Origin: Octopus vulgaris
Taxonomy: Eukaryota
Direction of reading: 5' to 3'
Length of the DNA: 64,000 bases
NCBI GenBank assembly: GCA_951406725.2
Contig: OX597825.1
Location: 17,236,001-17,300,000 of the forward strand
Shown here piece by piece: positions 4,734 to 50,574 of this stretch. The position numbers and the translations under genes are program-made. Position 1 is the stretch's first letter, and each line of letters starts with the position of its first letter. The notes under the pieces are model-generated. The model did not search any database and was not told the DNA's origin. It saw nothing but the letters and a program-made list of their open reading frames with translations.

Positions 4734-5141
4734 TTTAACGACTGGGAATTCTTCAGTACTTTTACACGGAAGTAAATCCTAACCAGCACGTCCTTTTTTT
4801 TAAAATTCTATCTGTATGGTTTTCTCATTGTCTATTAATAAATAGAATTGCAAGTCCGAGAGGCGTTATCAGTAATGTTCAAGTCTCTCGGTAGCGATAC
4901 TGGCTTACCTATGTACACAAATGGAAAAAGTCAGTCAAGCAGCAGAATCAATTAAATCGACCAAATTCTCCCTCACTTGATATATGTGGAACTGTGTCTA
5001 TATTGTGAATCACTGTTTAATATAAATCGTTTAATCAGTTACCGTATCATAAGGATCCATCTATACTGTCATTAAGAAACACCAACTACATTGGCGTTGA
5101 GCAGATGAGAAGGAATATTACCGATTATAAAATAGTTATAA

Positions 5142-5412
5142 ACATAGGCGCAGGAGTGGCTGTGTGGTAAGTAGCTTGCTTTCCACACACATGGTTCCGG
5201 GCAAGTGTCTTCTACAATAGCCTCGGGCCGACCAAAGCCTTGTGAGTACATTTGGTAGAGGGAAACTGCATATATACAACGAGCTTCTTTCAGTTTCCCT
5301 CGACCAAATGTACTCACAAAACTTGTCGGCCCGAGGCTATTGTAGAAGACACTTGCCCGGAACCATGTGTGTGGAAAGCAAGCTACACCACAAACCACTC
5401 CTGCCCTATGTA
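5142..5412. mobile_element. Two family-A SINE heads arranged as a fold-back
   Basis: 5142-5268 (+) and 5291-5412 (-) are near-perfect reverse complements, and both lack the same B-box segment. Confidence 0.9.
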
Positions 5413-5438
5413 TATATATATGTATATATATGTATATA

Positions 5439-5499
<61 letters not shown>

Positions 5500-5654
5500 A
5501 ATAATAAAAGGGTAAAATTAATTAACTATCTATTAATAATTTTACCAAGTAGTGTTCAGTATGTAAAAAGACCATTTACGGCATATTTAAAACATTACGT
5601 TATATAATTAGGGTTCAGTAAAACAAATTACTTTACCACACACCGAACTTTTAG

Positions 5655-5835
5655 AAATAGCGGCCAAAAATTTTAGCTATTTCCCCTACTATAAGAAAAG
5701 TCTCCCAGACAATGTATACTCAAAAATACTCTCTATTTTTCTCTCTATACTTGCGTGAATTATGTTTGAGTATACATTGTCTGGGAGACTTTCTTATAGT
5801 GGAGGAATTAGATAGATCTTTTGGCTGCTATTTCC
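5655..5835. repeat. Fold-back inverted repeat (~70-bp arms), probably a retroelement terminus
   Basis: ...actataagaaaagtctcccagacaatgtatactcaaa and tttgagtatacattgtctgggagactttcttatagt... Confidence 0.8.
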
Positions 5836-5984
5836 AAAAATTTTAAAAGAATTTTGGGGAAAATTTTCGAAATAGTTTTCAAAAATTTTGGGGAAAATTT
5901 TGAAAAAATTTTTCAAAAGTTTTTGGGAAAAATTTTCGAAAAAGTTTTTCAAAAATTTTGGGGGAAATTTTCAAAAATTTCCCC
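5836..5984. repeat. ~34-bp homopolymer-rich tandem repeat, about 4 units
   Basis: Repeating aaaaattttggggaaaattttcgaaaaagtttttc. Confidence 0.8.
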
Positions 5985-13062: not shown

Positions 13063-13350
13063 GTGTATGCGCATGGACACTGACCCACACGCATGCCCAC
13101 AATAAAAAAACAGAACGTACTTCGGATAACAGAGTCAACAACTAATGAAATGGCTGCAAGACGCAACGAAAAGTTTAGAAAAAATAAATAAGTAAATGAG
13201 TGAAAACTAAACCAGTGAGTGTGTTAAATAATAAGGCACTAAAAGAGAATGACTGTCCCCAGACACAACAAAATATGCTTCAACACATGAACTCAAATAA
13301 AGAATCTGGCAAAACGAAATCGAATTATTAAAATAACAAGAAAATTATAT

Positions 13351-13612
13351 ATGTAAAGTATAATAGCCATCTCAATATGGCTAACCACAAAGGGTGGGTG
13401 TTACTGTAGCTTTTAGCCCCAGGAGATCATCGTCTCCAGCTGGCTTTAGGCACACTATCTGTGCCCTTATGAAATTTGCAAAGGGAGGCCATCCCTTTCT
13501 CGTAAGCTAAAAGCTACAGTAACACCCACTCTTTGTGTTTTAGCCATATTGAGATGGCTATTATACTTTACATTGTCGAGCGGTTACTGTTTACATCTCG
13601 CTCAGAGATTTA
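13351..13612. mobile_element. Fold-back repeat family F, copy 1
   Basis: Arms 13351-13417 and 13506-13573; homologous to 35063-35260 and 50300-50534. Confidence 0.8.
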
Positions 13613-13989
13613 ATAATGCAAGAAAATTATAGAAAAGAGTAAAACAAACTGAAGAGAGACACGTAATCATATAAGGTAATCGCATATAGATATACACAGT
13701 GGCTTTGAGTACGCCAGATGCCGCACTGACGAATGAAACATAGGCATATAAATAAAAGGAAGACACAACTGCACCGAATGTAGACGCGAAAGAGTATACA
13801 TCAATTATATTATAGCTATTTTGATTATAATTATACAAACCGTGAATTATATCTTAACATTAAAATTTCATGCAAAGCTAACTTCCAAACTCCATTTAGA
13901 AGTATGCACACACAAACACACACACACCCGCGCAGACACAGACACACACACATCTATGCATGTATGTATGTATCTGTGTGTATACTTAT

Positions 13990-16284: not shown

Positions 16285-16380
16285 ATATATAGTTCAAATT
16301 TGCAGAAAAGCAATAGACGAAGACAGGTGTATGAACAACAAGCAAGTGTATTAGTTCGATGCTCGGGGAATTGAGAAGGT

Positions 16381-16416
16381 ATTTTACGTTTCGAGCCTAC
16401 GCTCTTCATCAGAAAG
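16381..16416 (-). ncRNA. Ultra-minimal hammerhead-like motif
   Basis: Minus strand: CUUU-CUGAUGA-A-GAGC GUAG GCUC-GAA-ACGU-A^-AAA; stem III is only the palindrome ACGU, so it would need to dimerise. Confidence 0.6.
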
Positions 16417-16743
16417 GAATAAAAGAAAATAAACCGTGAGAGAATGAAAAATACTTGGGGATTTAGCGATCGGGTTATATCGTATTGCTACAACGGTCAC
16501 GTTACAAGTCTTTATTAAACATATCGCAGTCAGGGATGTGGTATGCACAACATTCATGGTATGTCACGCAGCGCTCAAATCTTGAGTTGTGTAACATTCT
16601 CCATTCATTGATCAAGTCTGTAGTAATTAAATATTTTGTCATTCTCTCTAACCAGGTTGTTAATTGCTTCATATGTTATGTCTCGGTCCTCTGTGGATGC
16701 CTTCCCGTGAAATTTCCATACTTATCTACATACACATATACAT

Positions 16744-17845: not shown

Positions 17846-18340
17846 TTAGTTACAACGTATGTTTCGACCCATCTTAAACAAACAGGCCCCTTATTATCAC
17901 ACAGCCTTAGCTAAGGCTGGATATCGTAGGAATATCCTATACGCTCCTAGCAGTAGTAGTAGTAGTAGTAGTAATAATGATAATAACCATAATAGCTCAA
18001 TGACTAAAAGCATGAATACTTATTATTATAACCTTATCAAACACAACACTAACCACACACATAAAGTTAATAACCTAGATAATAGCATCACAAACCGAAA
18101 GAACAGGCTAAAGAGACGTAGATACATAAGAACCAACTATGCGCTAGAGAAAAGTAGCAAAATGCAATATAAATATTTGATACCACAAAATCTCAACGCT
18201 ACTCCAAACACCCGAACAAAATGCCCCAACAGGAAAGACAAAAGCCAGGACATCCTCGGGTATAACCCGAGTTAAAACCTATTGAAGTGGTAACCATGAA
18301 ACCTATGCTAAAGAAGAACCGTATTCGAATAACATGTATT
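17846..18340 (+). mobile_element. Penelope-like element remnant
   Basis: KQAPYYHTALAKAGYRRNILY resembles the PLE post-thumb motif; degenerate hammerhead-like cores near 18283-18340 (+) and an inverted GAAAC..GU half near 17850-17870. Confidence 0.5.
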
Positions 18341-22419: not shown

Positions 22420-22840
22420 CTTTTGTCTCTTAGTGATGGAGTACCGTCTTGAAAGATTTTACTCGAGAGAATCGACCCCAGTACTTACTGTTCTGAAGCA
22501 TGTTTCTTAATCTGGCGAACCACTACGTTAGAGGACGTAAACAACCCTAAGCCTGTCGTTAAGCGATGTTCGAGAACTAAAATTTTTATAAAGACACCTC
22601 CCCACATATATATGTATGAACACACAAATACACACACATAAGACTACACACACACACATATATAAGCACATATACGACAGGCTTCTTTCAGTTTCCGTCA
22701 ACTAAACCTACACACAAGGTGTTCGTCGGACCGAATCTGTAGTGGATGCCACTTGCCCACGAAGCCGTGCACAAGAACTGAACCCGGAACTATGTTGTTG
22801 GGAGGCAGCCTTCTTACCACCCAGCTGCGCCTTCGCTTAT
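22420..22840 (-). mobile_element. Old diverged SINE family A
   Basis: ggcttctttcagtttccgtc, actgaacccggaac and atcgaccccagtactta motifs. Confidence 0.75.
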
Positions 22841-34666: not shown

Positions 34667-35062
34667 GAGACGTTGGGCAAAAATGCTCATTTATCATAAA
34701 ACGATAACACCAACAGGACAGCAAAATTAATTAATGTAAATATTTAGAAATAAGTGAAGTGTTTCGTTTGGTACATCACACCACCAAGTATTTTGTAAAC
34801 AGAATATCCTTGACATAAGACATCGTTTATTTACTAAGCAATCATGAAATAGTATAGAGGAACACCCAAGATGGGAAGACCGTAAAATAATCACCGAACG
34901 CTACAACATCAATGGCAGAAACTTTGATAGCATTATTGTTTAAAGTGTATATTAAACCTTACATACAAGATCGTGGAAGACGTTAGTTAACACGACCTTA
35001 GATTGTCTTTCCCAGAGATAGATAAACTGCAGAATATGTACACACACACACACATATATATA

Positions 35063-35259
35063 GTGACGTATATTTGCCATTGAAATATGGATAACCCCTA
35101 AGGGTGGATGCTACTGTAGTTTGTAACCCCAGCAGGCCACCGCCTCCAGCTGGAGGCTACAAACTACAGTAGCATCCACCCTTAGGGGTTAGCCATATTT
35201 CAATGGCAAATATACGTCACGATGTGTTGTAGCTACTGTTTATAACTCGCTCTGAGATT

Positions 35260-35260
<1 letters not shown>
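35063..35260. mobile_element. Fold-back repeat family F, copy 2
   Basis: Arms ~35063-35127 and ~35155-35220 around the palindrome gcctccagctggaggc; the 3' extension runs into (TA)n. Confidence 0.8.
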
Positions 35261-35333
<73 letters not shown>

Positions 35334-35369: not shown

Positions 35370-35610
35370 ATTCTCCCATCAGGATAATGCTCGGCCACAT
35401 ACAACAACGATGACATTACAAATGCTGGAGTAGCTTGAATGGGAAACGATGCCCCACCCACCATATTTGCTGAACATTAGCCCTTCTGATTATCAGTTCT
35501 TCCGCAGTCTTCAAAATAATTTCGACTGAAAAAATATGAATTCTGTAGACAAGGTCAGTACTGGAGGAGTATTTTTCCTCACGGACAAGTGAATTTTGGA
35601 AGAGGAGCCT
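35370..35610 (+). mobile_element. Decayed mariner transposase fragment
   Basis: HQDNARPH and LEWETMPHPPYLLNISPSDYQFFRSLQN match mariner HDNARPH and HPPYSPDLAPSDYHLFRSL; in-frame stops. Confidence 0.85.
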
Positions 35611-35611
35611 G

Positions 35612-35987
35612 GGCCTCAACTATGCGAACCTGTTCTTTGGCTATGTTGAGGTCCAAATATTCGTAAATTTCACTGGTCTCACTCCCGAACTATATGGCCG
35701 TTATATTGACGACCTTATCGGTGCAACCCAACCTCACTCTCCCGCGAACATCTAAACTCCTACCTCTCTTTTGTCAAATATTTCCATCCTGCCCTCTACT
35801 TGTCCTGCACTATCTCTGACACCTCTGTTTCCTTTCTTGACATTTCGGTCAGCTTTCTTCACTCCACTCGTACCACAGCCATCCACTATAAACACGCATA
35901 CTCACACTCATACCTCAACTTCTTCTCCTCCCACCCTCAACACACCAAGCTTTTCATCCCATATTTCCCAATTCCTCCGTCTACGTA
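35612..35987 (+). mobile_element. Penelope-like reverse transcriptase fragment
   Basis: NYANLFFGYVE...YGRYIDD, then FHPAL, SVSFLDISV, HSYLNFFSSHPQHTKLFIPY and QFLRLR; frameshifted. Confidence 0.9.
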
Positions 35988-38049
35988 CACTTTTTTACCA
36001 AACTTGTATATCTTGTCCTTGCCTCTCCCTTTTCTATTGTCTCAGTAATCCTAATTTATTGAACCAGAAACAAAATTCCAAATTTCTTTCCCTACGAAAT
36101 ACAATTTTCATTCTGAAGAATATAAACTTCACTTATACTCCGCTGTGACAAATTCTTTCTTTGATGTATCTACTTCTTGTTTTAATTCTTGCTGACGCAA
36201 CACATAATTATTTCCCTGTGACTATACAATATTTTACTTTACTTCCGTTCTTTACATAGAATTACCTACTTCAAATATAACAGTTGAGAAAAATTGCTCC
36301 GCCAAGCTGACTTAATTAAAACTGGTTTATAGATACATGATGTAGAAGCCAATGGTTTTGATCCATTCAATGTACCGTTATAATGTGTCTATTTGATATC
36401 GACTGTGGACTATGGAATATTTGATATCAAAAATTGATGTCATTTTTAATATTACAACCTCACATTGTATAAACAATACTATACTTTTTATGTCGATAAC
36501 ATGATACTGCGCAATAGAAATGATGTTGTGTATTGATATAACATCTATAAAGTAAAGAAATGCAGTGAATATGAATCTCGAAACATTTTGGAGGATTTGC
36601 AAAAATATATTTCCTTTAGCGCATCGACATGTCTATTCATATTGTGGGTACAATTCAGCCAAGTGCAGATCATAACGTTACAAGATAAACAATGGTATAT
36701 GCGTAGCCATATTTTCGAGACAGAAAACCAAACTGTAAATATACAGAGATTTCTTATCTATGACCAAGGAGCACGTATACTGTATGCTTTAATCTGTGTA
36801 CATTACATTATCAAGGGGCCTGTTCTGTGTCATTGGCTAAATAAGAACTAAGGAACATTTAAGGGTTGGCAAAATTGACTGTGGAAATTATTTTGTTATT
36901 GACGGTTTCCCTTTCACACACATATCTTTAAGCGAAGGCTAGCTCGATGTTGCTTTATTCGCATCCCAAGTGATTTGCGATCACATATGAGCAAAACTCG
37001 ATTTCCTTCTTATATTTAGCATGAATGATTTTTCTTTCTAGTTAATGAGAAATGTTTTAGGAGTGTCTTCGGATATAATATTAAGCATTAATTTTAAATC
37101 ATATTTCATGCTATCATGATATCATTACATAATTGTGCAACGGAAATGTAAATTTTAAATATGAATATGTATTTCGTATTTCTTAGAGAAATATGATCTC
37201 ATATCAAATTTGTTTTATCTATCTGAAAAATGTTTTCCACCATGGGACAAAATATTCTATTCTCTTCTCGCATACCCATTTTATTACAATGGTTTAGATT
37301 TGTTAATATCCAACAGACAAGAGAAATGTTATAGACTGATGTGAGAGACAGGTTAATTTAGATTATCGGAAAAATGATCTTCGCTATATGCATTAAAGGA
37401 GAAAAAATATTCAGATACGAAAACTACATTTAGCATAGGAAAAATATAAACCATAAATAATGAACGTGAAAGCAACATAACGACGCTGGAGCCATTGCCA
37501 CTATAACTAAAACGCTTAGAAAAGAGTTAATAGGTTTTATGTTGTTTGAATAAAAGTAAGTACGTCAAAGGAAATCTTCTTAGAGACACAGCGATGAGAA
37601 TAAAACGAGTATTCTCCTTTGTTTGTCTGTGATAAAAGAAAACTGTCTTCTTCCACATTCAGACAAGGTTGAGAGAAAGCATATCATACGAACCATTTTC
37701 ATTTTTCCCCATTTATATATACAAGGAAGGGGAACATAAGTAAATGCTGTCTTTTCTGCTTGTTGTCGATATTCAATTACTGCTATTTATATTCTTCATA
37801 GAAGGAAATCTTGTTAGTGCTTACATATATGGTGGAGTCTTTGATATTCCATTTCTAAACACAGGATAGGACTTAAACTAACAACGTCTTTTGATTGTCT
37901 TTTTGAAAGAGAGTTATTCATGCGACAAGGAAAAAAATGTAATGTCATTGTAATAGAGTGCTAGAAATCGTAAAACTATGTCTTCAGTTTTCACCCTTGT
38001 AAAATCATATAGCAGCCGCCCGAGATTATGTATGGGAAGAAATGTCCCA

Positions 38050-49638: not shown

Positions 49639-50299
49639 CATGTATATATATATATGTATGTATGCGTGTATGAGTATTCATATATATATATATATATATA
49701 TATGTACATACATACACATACAAAAACACACACACACACGCACACACACACGCACACACATATATATATACATGAACGTTTGTGTGTGTCCATATCCGCG
49801 TGCACAAAAACGGAAACGAACGCGCACGCGAGCCTGTTTTTCTATGCTCGCATAGATAGAAACATTGCGATGGTGATGTTGGTGATGTTGGTTGGTGATG
49901 CGGATGCAGCTGAGGACTATGATGATGATCGCGTCTATCATCGTGATCATCGTTACTATCATGATCATCAACGTTGTCATAAAACATTCCATGTAGAACA
50001 CAAAAAAAGCTACACAGAGAAAAGCTTAAAAGCAGTGGCAGAAACACATTACTAAAAAACAAGCGACATGCGGAATGATTTATATGATATATGAATTAAT
50101 GAACTGTCGAGACAATTTACACGCATGTCAGCATTTTATAAACTAAACTAATTGATATCTCAGGAAAAAAAATGACTCACATCTATTAATATAATACATA
50201 AATATGAAGATAAATATTTTTTTTTTTATAAGTATCGCAGTTGAAATCGCATTTCGCCACTAGAATTCCCATGGATACAATTTATCTATAAGCAATAAT

Positions 50300-50534
50300 A
50301 CATCTCTGAACGAGGTATAAACAGTAACTGCAAGACAATGTGAGGTATTTTTGCCATCTCAATATGGCTAACCACTAACTGTGGGTGTTACTGTAGCTTG
50401 TAGCCCCAGGAGAACATCGGCTCCAGAGAAGTGTGCCTGTAGCCAGCTGGAGGCGATGTTCTCCTGGGGCTACAAGCTACAGTAACACCCAGCCTTAGTG
50501 GTTAGCCATATTGAGATGGCAAATATACCTCACA
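50300..50534. mobile_element. Fold-back repeat family F, copy 3
   Basis: Arms ~50339-50427 and ~50445-50534; the extension at 50300-50338 is homologous to the tails of copies 1 and 2. Confidence 0.8.
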
Positions 50535-50574
50535 ATTTATATATAGACATACATATATATATATATGCACATAT

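Follow-up and report, generated by a model that had tools for sequence, protein, structure and literature searches.

Fold-back repeats in an octopus genome as probable two-armed insertions of a 354-nt hammerhead-bearing element

The window analysed here is a 64,000-nt stretch of the Octopus vulgaris genome (GenBank GCA_951406725.2, contig OX597825.1, positions 17,236,001 to 17,300,000). It holds three fold-back copies of one repeat family, and we consider it highly probable that they are 5'-truncated, two-armed insertions of a 354-nt hammerhead-bearing repeat, likely pasted by the reverse transcriptase (RT) and endonuclease of a Penelope-like element (PLE) acting in trans. The RNA motif that a sequence-only reading had picked out in these copies would then be the folded 3' domain of the repeat, likely a recognition or start element. 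We observed directly the unit, a hammerhead motif 210 nt upstream of a fixed 3' end, two fixed arm ends, target duplications and covarying helices in the 3' domain. By its sequence-level features the element is a retrozyme; its self-cleavage and a circular RNA are predictions from sequence.

Window copies and the full repeat unit

The three homologous fold-backs (copies 1 to 3; 13351-13619, 35060-35265 and 50290-50534) each have a one-sided tail of ~43-48 nt outside the duplicated arms. They had been described as a family with a common tail on one arm, which BLAST between the copies (E 1e-53 to 1e-14) and the arm maps confirmed, and the tail of copy 2 runs into (TA)n as had been noted. The genome comprises 2.8 Gb in 227 contigs, and the window is about one third GC with many microsatellites. 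For unit coordinates, the reference point is where a conserved 9-mer close to the 3' end finishes (in copy 1 this 9-mer is window 13602-13610); on this scale each copy, mapped on longer relatives, consists of an inverted arm and a sense arm (Table 1). The inverted arm of copy 1 ends 13 nt before reaching the hammerhead cut site. The arms of copy 2 join at a palindromic octamer, and this copy is inserted in a TA repeat.

Table 1. Features of the window, with positions counted from its first nucleotide
Feature	Position	Strand	Remark
Copy 1, left target-site duplication, 12-13 bp	13338..13349	.	identical to 13620-13631
Copy 1, inverted arm, unit -197 to -37	13351..13510	-	contains the motif of the sequence-only reading
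Copy 1, sense arm, unit -103 to about +9, subfamily C	13506..13619	+	arm mapping
Copy 1, long-range helix, 5' strand	13516..13523
Copy 1, tail, between two inferred start points	13574..13619	+	arm mapping
Copy 1, long-range helix, 3' strand	13583..13590		in tail
Copy 1, right target-site duplication	13620..13631	.	matches left one
Copy 2, inverted arm, unit -129 to -36	35060..35153	-	arm mapping
Copy 2, sense arm and tail, unit -108 to +6, subfamily B	35150..35265	+	arm mapping
Copy 3, left target-site duplication, 14 bp, 1 mismatch	50277..50290	.	flank comparison
Copy 3, sense arm and tail, unit -125 to +11, subfamily A	50290..50426	-	arm mapping
Copy 3, inverted arm, unit -147 to -38	50424..50534	+	arm mapping
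Copy 3, right target-site duplication	50532..50545	.	flank comparison
Fold-back of another family	5137..5416
Fold-back of another family	5646..5842
Minimal hammerhead motif, other family	about 16380..16420	-
Frame, presumably Naiad-type	17850..18275	+
31-aa frame, presumably mariner-type	35434..35526	+
Decayed Penelope-type RT fragment	35549..36045	+	frameshifted

Several other features lie in the window. The decayed RT fragment, 280 bp from copy 2 and past its TA run, looks like a separate insertion; over 44 aa it is 75% identical to an abundant family whose frames reach 1200 aa. The 31-aa frame, which we take to resemble a fragment of a mariner-type transposase, had no match in a Pfam search. 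A second frame presumably resembles the C-terminal part of a Naiad-type PLE protein; similar frames are present in L027 and L102, and the Pfam search of the window frame gave no informative match. The minimal hammerhead motif of another family sits upstream of a 3' end running into a TA repeat. One of the two fold-backs of other families (5137-5416) belongs to a very common repeat found again near 22600-22800. An Rfam scan of the whole window gave only microRNA-type matches on simple repeats or hairpins among the matches listed (150 of 276).

Searches of the same genome with the three copies returned 2401, 1359 and 1869 first-look candidates, which are not copy numbers; per search, 40 candidates were scored and 30 loci taken. 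The loci fell into subfamilies A (copy 3), B (copy 2) and C (copy 1), with 67-83% identity between them. Our A/B set comprised 58 loci and the 3 window copies, with L001 and L031 left out as duplicates of window copies, and includes two loci with common flanks (L037 and L038). The C set comprised 27 insertions after L091, L102 and L105 were left out as duplicates.

The full unit is non-coding and has a period of 354 nt. Long copies continue into a second unit: each copy that exceeds one unit (L002, L004, L028, L098, L103, L104 and the L121 array) leads into a further unit and not into an open reading frame (ORF). Protein-coding capacity was absent from the 11 units compared, in which the longest ATG frame was 19-55 aa, frame length varied modulo 3 and no frame was preserved; the idea that the 3' region is what is left of an ORF was likewise dismissed. 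The element contains no RT or GIY-YIG ORF and thus does not qualify as an autonomous PLE. GC content was 0.41-0.48 in all 11 units. Sister families have periods of 359 and 362 nt, and both monomers and tandem repeats occur. Assembled contigs from 4 of 14 presumed-RNA runs cover the unit and carry no strand, end or level information.

Related families are widespread. Among sixty 10-kb stretches sampled at round coordinates, 6 contained members, which scales to roughly 28,000 loci with a wide margin, and only one of the six members was of the A/B/C type. Families D, E, F and G have a hammerhead at the homologous place. Family D forms an array (L121 2095-4766; G000:C1, about 20,002,100-20,004,770) of five sense and two inverted units that is young and has TA repeats on its flanks; all 5 complete sense-arm and 2 inverted-arm hammerhead motifs listed for it are canonical. 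Family E (L181-L200) is very young: its copies are 99% identical and its 362-nt units stand in tandem, with at most about 11 in a row. It has a U3-A8 hammerhead and a tail of about 65 nt. Family F is old (about 80% identity between copies), and the hammerhead pattern parsed 7 of its 16 old copies, taking the wrong triplet in 6 of these 7.

Hammerhead motifs and the folded 3' domain

The hammerhead lies 45-70 nt upstream of the previously noted motif; on the strand that reads toward the tail, its cut is predicted at -210. Its core is reached by 24/61 A/B insertions and 15/27 C insertions, and by none of the three window copies, which lack it because they are truncated at their 5' ends (-197, -129 and -147). 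The earlier statement that the family has no CUGANGA/GAAA core is therefore correct for the truncated window copies only, as full units of A, B and C have a hammerhead. The family is not hammerhead-less, which removes a false lead. That the RNA strand is the one read toward the tail had been assumed, rightly in our view: the hammerhead is on this strand, and circular folds were more stable on it in 4/4 natural units (3/4 by z-score).

Loci had been chosen by their 3' region only. Subfamily A yielded 16 full-length hammerheads in 14/29 loci (12 canonical, 1 with U4C and 3 otherwise changed) and subfamily B 14 hammerheads in 14/29 loci (8 with U4C, 1 canonical and 5 otherwise changed). Among 16 distinct hammerheads of subfamily C, 15 had U3 and A8 replacing C3 and G8, and 13 of those were otherwise intact. 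The hammerheads of A, B and C are of type I and combine a stem I of 6 bp with a 3-by-1 internal loop and another stem of 5 bp; stem III is short and mostly palindromic. Compensatory changes were found in stem I between families. The closing helix of the hammerhead arm (7-14 bp) was present with changing sequence in 11/11 rows of the alignment described below, 9/12 unpaired columns of the core were conserved, and in the single-sequence fold of an A unit the hammerhead caps a long arm (z -3.74, reached by 0/100 shuffles).

Rfam model HH9 (RF02275) matched L098 of subfamily C along the full model length with 34.6 bits (E 3.8e-7), against a gathering score of 52. No hammerhead was reported at the gathering score in 17 subfamily A loci or by E-value in the L002 unit, and the D and E loci gave none at E 0.01. 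The stem II base of the A and B hammerheads is mismatched (C-A at 10.1/11.1), and most B hammerheads have U4C, so cutting may be poor. Natural core variants have been described in which U3-A8 is active, U4C is weaker and a palindromic stem III permits dimers (Perreault et al. 2011, PMC3088659, in the text accessible), and 8/9 Xenopus retrozymes gave no cleavage in vitro according to the available part of a preprint (bioRxiv 10.64898/2026.07.22.740005). Activity of the A, B and C hammerheads is accordingly stated here as predicted.

To describe the 3' domain we aligned 11 natural units (A, B, C, D, E and G; about six lineages) by sequence only, leaving F out. RNAalifold recovered the four main helices that had been proposed from the window copies (GGCACA/UGUGCC, AGCC/GGCU, GGAG/CUCC and GCCAU/AUGGC), which were kept at 91-96% of cells, together with a long-range helix from the motif to the tail that the sequence-only reading had missed and that covaries across sister families. 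The five supported helices paired in 95.5, 90.9, 90.9, 87.2 and 96.4% of cells. The first hairpin (GGCACA/UGUGCC) is well supported in the aligned units and missing from copy 2, because copy 2 is too short; in an exhaustive helix scan this hairpin and the long-range helix ranked highest for double changes. Over 35 named pairs, 87.5% of cells paired and 15 pairs had changed on both sides, values reached by 0/500 shuffles for either measure, with the caveat that the rows are related and the structure derives partly from the same alignment. Covariation had been named as one check on the motif, and it was found. The single-sequence fold of an A unit reproduced the alignment helices.

Two further pairings and a loop proposed at the same time fared worse. 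AGCU/AGCU, put forward as a possible pseudoknot, paired in 72.7% of cells with zero true double changes, the two apparent ones stemming from shifted D rows. The ACC/GGU helix was weak (66.7% of cells). The twister ribozyme has a conserved L4 loop and two pseudoknots; the string said to recall this loop occurred in 2/11 rows, both of the copy-3 subfamily, and had no Rfam match. A bulged UGG was conserved in at least 10/11 rows. Pairing between its two G and a pyrimidine run further downstream is possible in 28/33 cells, with one-sided changes only.

What the 3' domain does is most likely to serve as the recognition and start region of a reverse transcriptase and not as a catalyst. The inner start point keeps a distance of about 10 nt ahead of the long-range helix's 3' strand even between families that have diverged by ~30% or more, and this constancy relative to the helix favours a recognition or start role, in which the domain would bind the PLE protein. 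The main rival to this role is that the 3' helices only aid compact, stable folding of a small circular or multimeric RNA and have no specific task, which agrees with our identification of the element and differs just on the job of the 3' domain. The whole unit does fold well (z -3.74; circular z -4.2 to -6.4) and the 3' part alone only modestly (z -1.71; opposite strand -1.54), and covarying helices flank the hammerhead too, all of which speaks for this rival. Against it stands the fixed inner start, and we regard it as the less likely account, though one to be taken seriously.

The genome offers at least seven related lineages in which the 3' fold and the inner start are constant and the sequence has drifted by 30% or more. 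Such natural variants could help to reveal the template features recognised by a PLE reverse transcriptase, and the subfamilies are natural hammerhead core variants usable in activity tests.

Insertion footprint and proposed mechanism

The ends of the arms were confined to few places. The sense arm ended at about +3 to +12. An outer inverted arm was present in 46/61 A/B insertions, where 40/46 stopped at -34 to -45, and in 16/27 C insertions, where 13/16 stopped at -35 to -38; the remaining 15/61 A/B copies had no outer inverted arm. The D array ended at +5 and -35. In family E, mapped from 11/20 loci, some of them overlapping, 7/17 ends lay at -36 to -43 and 7/17 at +23 or +24. Target duplications of at least 9 bp flanked 27/56 insertions and 0/56 shifted controls after a simple-repeat filter; 22/28 non-simple duplications measured 12-14 bp, and two of the longer ones were still repeat-like despite the filter. 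The insertions therefore show the footprint of a PLE, in which the 3' end is fixed, the 5' side is truncated and copied in inverted orientation, and a tail is present on one side only. The Penelope-like layout that had been suggested for the fold-backs is upheld.

Three subfamily B copies (L044, L053 and L056) are inserted at nearly the same spot just downstream of the hammerhead of another family, with similar 11-12-bp duplications. A target preference for another PLE terminus is a possible explanation of this common site.

Arm ends within 4 nt of the hammerhead cut were rare (1/102 in A/B and 2/27 in C). Arms read through the cut site with no pile-up, so the linear cut monomer is not the usual template, which is likely to be an uncut multimer or a circle. 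We propose that a multimeric transcript would be cut by the hammerhead, probably as a dimer because stem III is a short palindrome, and would possibly be circularised. A PLE protein would bind the folded 3' domain and nick both strands of AT-rich DNA, 12-14 bp apart. Synthesis of cDNA would start internally, once at +5 to +11 and once at about -37; both cDNAs would abort at variable lengths and then be joined back to back, which would yield a fold-back with a one-sided tail. Short copies would end before the hammerhead.

A candidate source of such a protein exists, since the genome has intact PLE-type RT frames (RVT_1, E 6e-10) with a GIY-YIG-type nuclease. We distinguished three PLE RT families: two are young and have RT and nuclease frames of 775 aa, and the third is abundant, its longest frames measuring 1200 aa. 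In 34 ten-kb stretches around these families, no profile match was continuous with an RT frame, only separate insertions being found, and none of the three shared a terminus with the 354-nt unit. Three loci (L256-L258) are tandem PLE copies with a 4271-bp period, in which an upstream frame of ~450 aa overlaps the 775-aa RT and nuclease frame; a hammerhead pattern search of these loci found none. At another locus, a 356-aa frame (L067 59-1126, +) presumably represents an exon coding for Prp8, a spliceosomal protein. Some 400 bp further downstream is a family copy that probably sits in an intron.

The copies could instead be truncated termini (pLTRs) of an autonomous PLE and no separate non-autonomous element. 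Such termini carry hammerheads and the same tail, and retrozymes in print derive from pLTRs, as far as the accessible texts go. Against this, copies of more than one unit continue into another unit and not into an ORF, and the frames, at most 55 aa from an ATG and varying in length modulo 3, preserve no coding sequence; we consider this origin very improbable.

A further proposal had been that the motif is a different, perhaps undescribed, ribozyme or a pseudoknotted cis-element. As a self-cleaving ribozyme or catalytic pseudoknot beside the hammerhead, the bulged-UGG domain would process the RNA where the hammerhead is weakened by U4C or the C-A mismatch, giving a two-ribozyme element. Its attractions are the covarying helices, the conserved UGG with its pairable pyrimidine run, the variant and perhaps weak hammerheads of A and B, and 11/102 A/B arm ends within 2 nt of -127, inside the motif. 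This cluster was rejected as a cleavage mark: it coincides with the edge of the 113-131-nt queries combined with palindrome joining, and with an 81-nt query, which biases ends less, 0/27 sense ends fell between -125 and -150 and no sharp ends remained inside the motif. The unit already has a hammerhead, so the idea that the motif stands in for one in a family of hammerhead layout fails too, its own hammerhead being lost from the window copies by 5' truncation. Conserved unpaired columns of the motif were few and scattered (13/58) when compared with the hammerhead core, and the pyrimidine run is absent from family F. Neither the AGCU pairing nor the variable twister-like string helps this proposal. 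Rfam searches of copies 1 and 3 at E up to 10 gave no ribozyme among 2 and 7 matches, and no covariance model of HDV-like, pistol, hatchet or twister-sister ribozymes matched the 3' motif. The Rfam searches of L098 and of the L002 unit likewise gave no ribozyme match at the 3' region. We give a second ribozyme in either form very little credence.

A DNA transposon (a MITE or fold-back element) with long terminal inverted repeats would account for the fold-back shape and the target duplications, but arm lengths that vary by copy, a tail at one end only, one-armed copies, tandem units and an internal hammerhead make it scarcely credible.

Comparison with known systems

The insertions read as probable products of PLE machinery acting on a retrozyme. 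According to the accessible parts of the literature, insertions of PLEs are truncated on the 5' side, include inverted 5' copies and have a tail of 30-40 bp (Craig et al. 2021, PMC8557442). In work with a purified PLE protein, both strands were cut and extended at AT-rich sites, synthesis began at two internal positions flanking the tail, and hammerhead cleavage was not needed; what the RT recognises on its template was traced no further than to the first 172 nt of the ORF (available portion of Frangieh et al. 2024, PMC11167929). Retrozymes have been argued to be non-autonomous PLE derivatives that arose from pLTRs (bioRxiv 10.64898/2026.07.22.740005, likewise in part). Among the openly accessible papers listed on octopus Penelope ribozymes and on retrozyme twin priming, none describes this family or its 3' fold; Repbase and most subscription papers lie outside that scope.

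With the Rfam hammerheads of clan CL00010, our motifs have in common the three stems, the internal loop of stem I, the core and the cleavage triplet; they differ in that the best score is below the gathering score and the A and B units are unrecognised. Resemblance of the 3' motif to twister or HDV-like ribozymes is much slighter: the loop string matches in one subfamily only and is not conserved, and pseudoknot covariation and an Rfam match are both absent.

Termini of PLEs (pLTR and tail), for example PAc of the anole, likewise have a hammerhead upstream of two internal start points, a one-sided tail, an inverted 5' copy and AT-rich and TA targets, as far as the sources at hand describe them. 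The 354-nt element differs in having no ORF, and its start points are placed 173 nt and about 218 nt downstream of the cut site. Its tail of 43-48 nt (about 65 nt in family E) is also longer than the 30-40 bp in the parts of the PLE literature consulted.

Metazoan non-LTR retrozymes are the closest match. Retrozymes were recognised here by a monomer of about 150-450 bp, the occurrence of monomers and tandem repeats, and GC below 50%, all of which the family shows. With the elements in the available portions of the published descriptions (Cervera and de la Pena 2020, PMC7229834; Li, Clavereau and Pollet 2026), the family has in common a non-coding monomer of 350-365 nt with a GC content of 41-48%, one type I hammerhead per unit, an organization from monomers to tandem arrays, and target duplications of more than 4 bp, which here are mostly 12-14 bp; mussel retrozyme units are given as 350-390 bp. 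The octopus family differs from them in that most copies are truncated two-armed fold-backs and in that the cores, as read from sequence, vary by subfamily (canonical, U4C, U3-A8 and C-A at 10.1/11.1).
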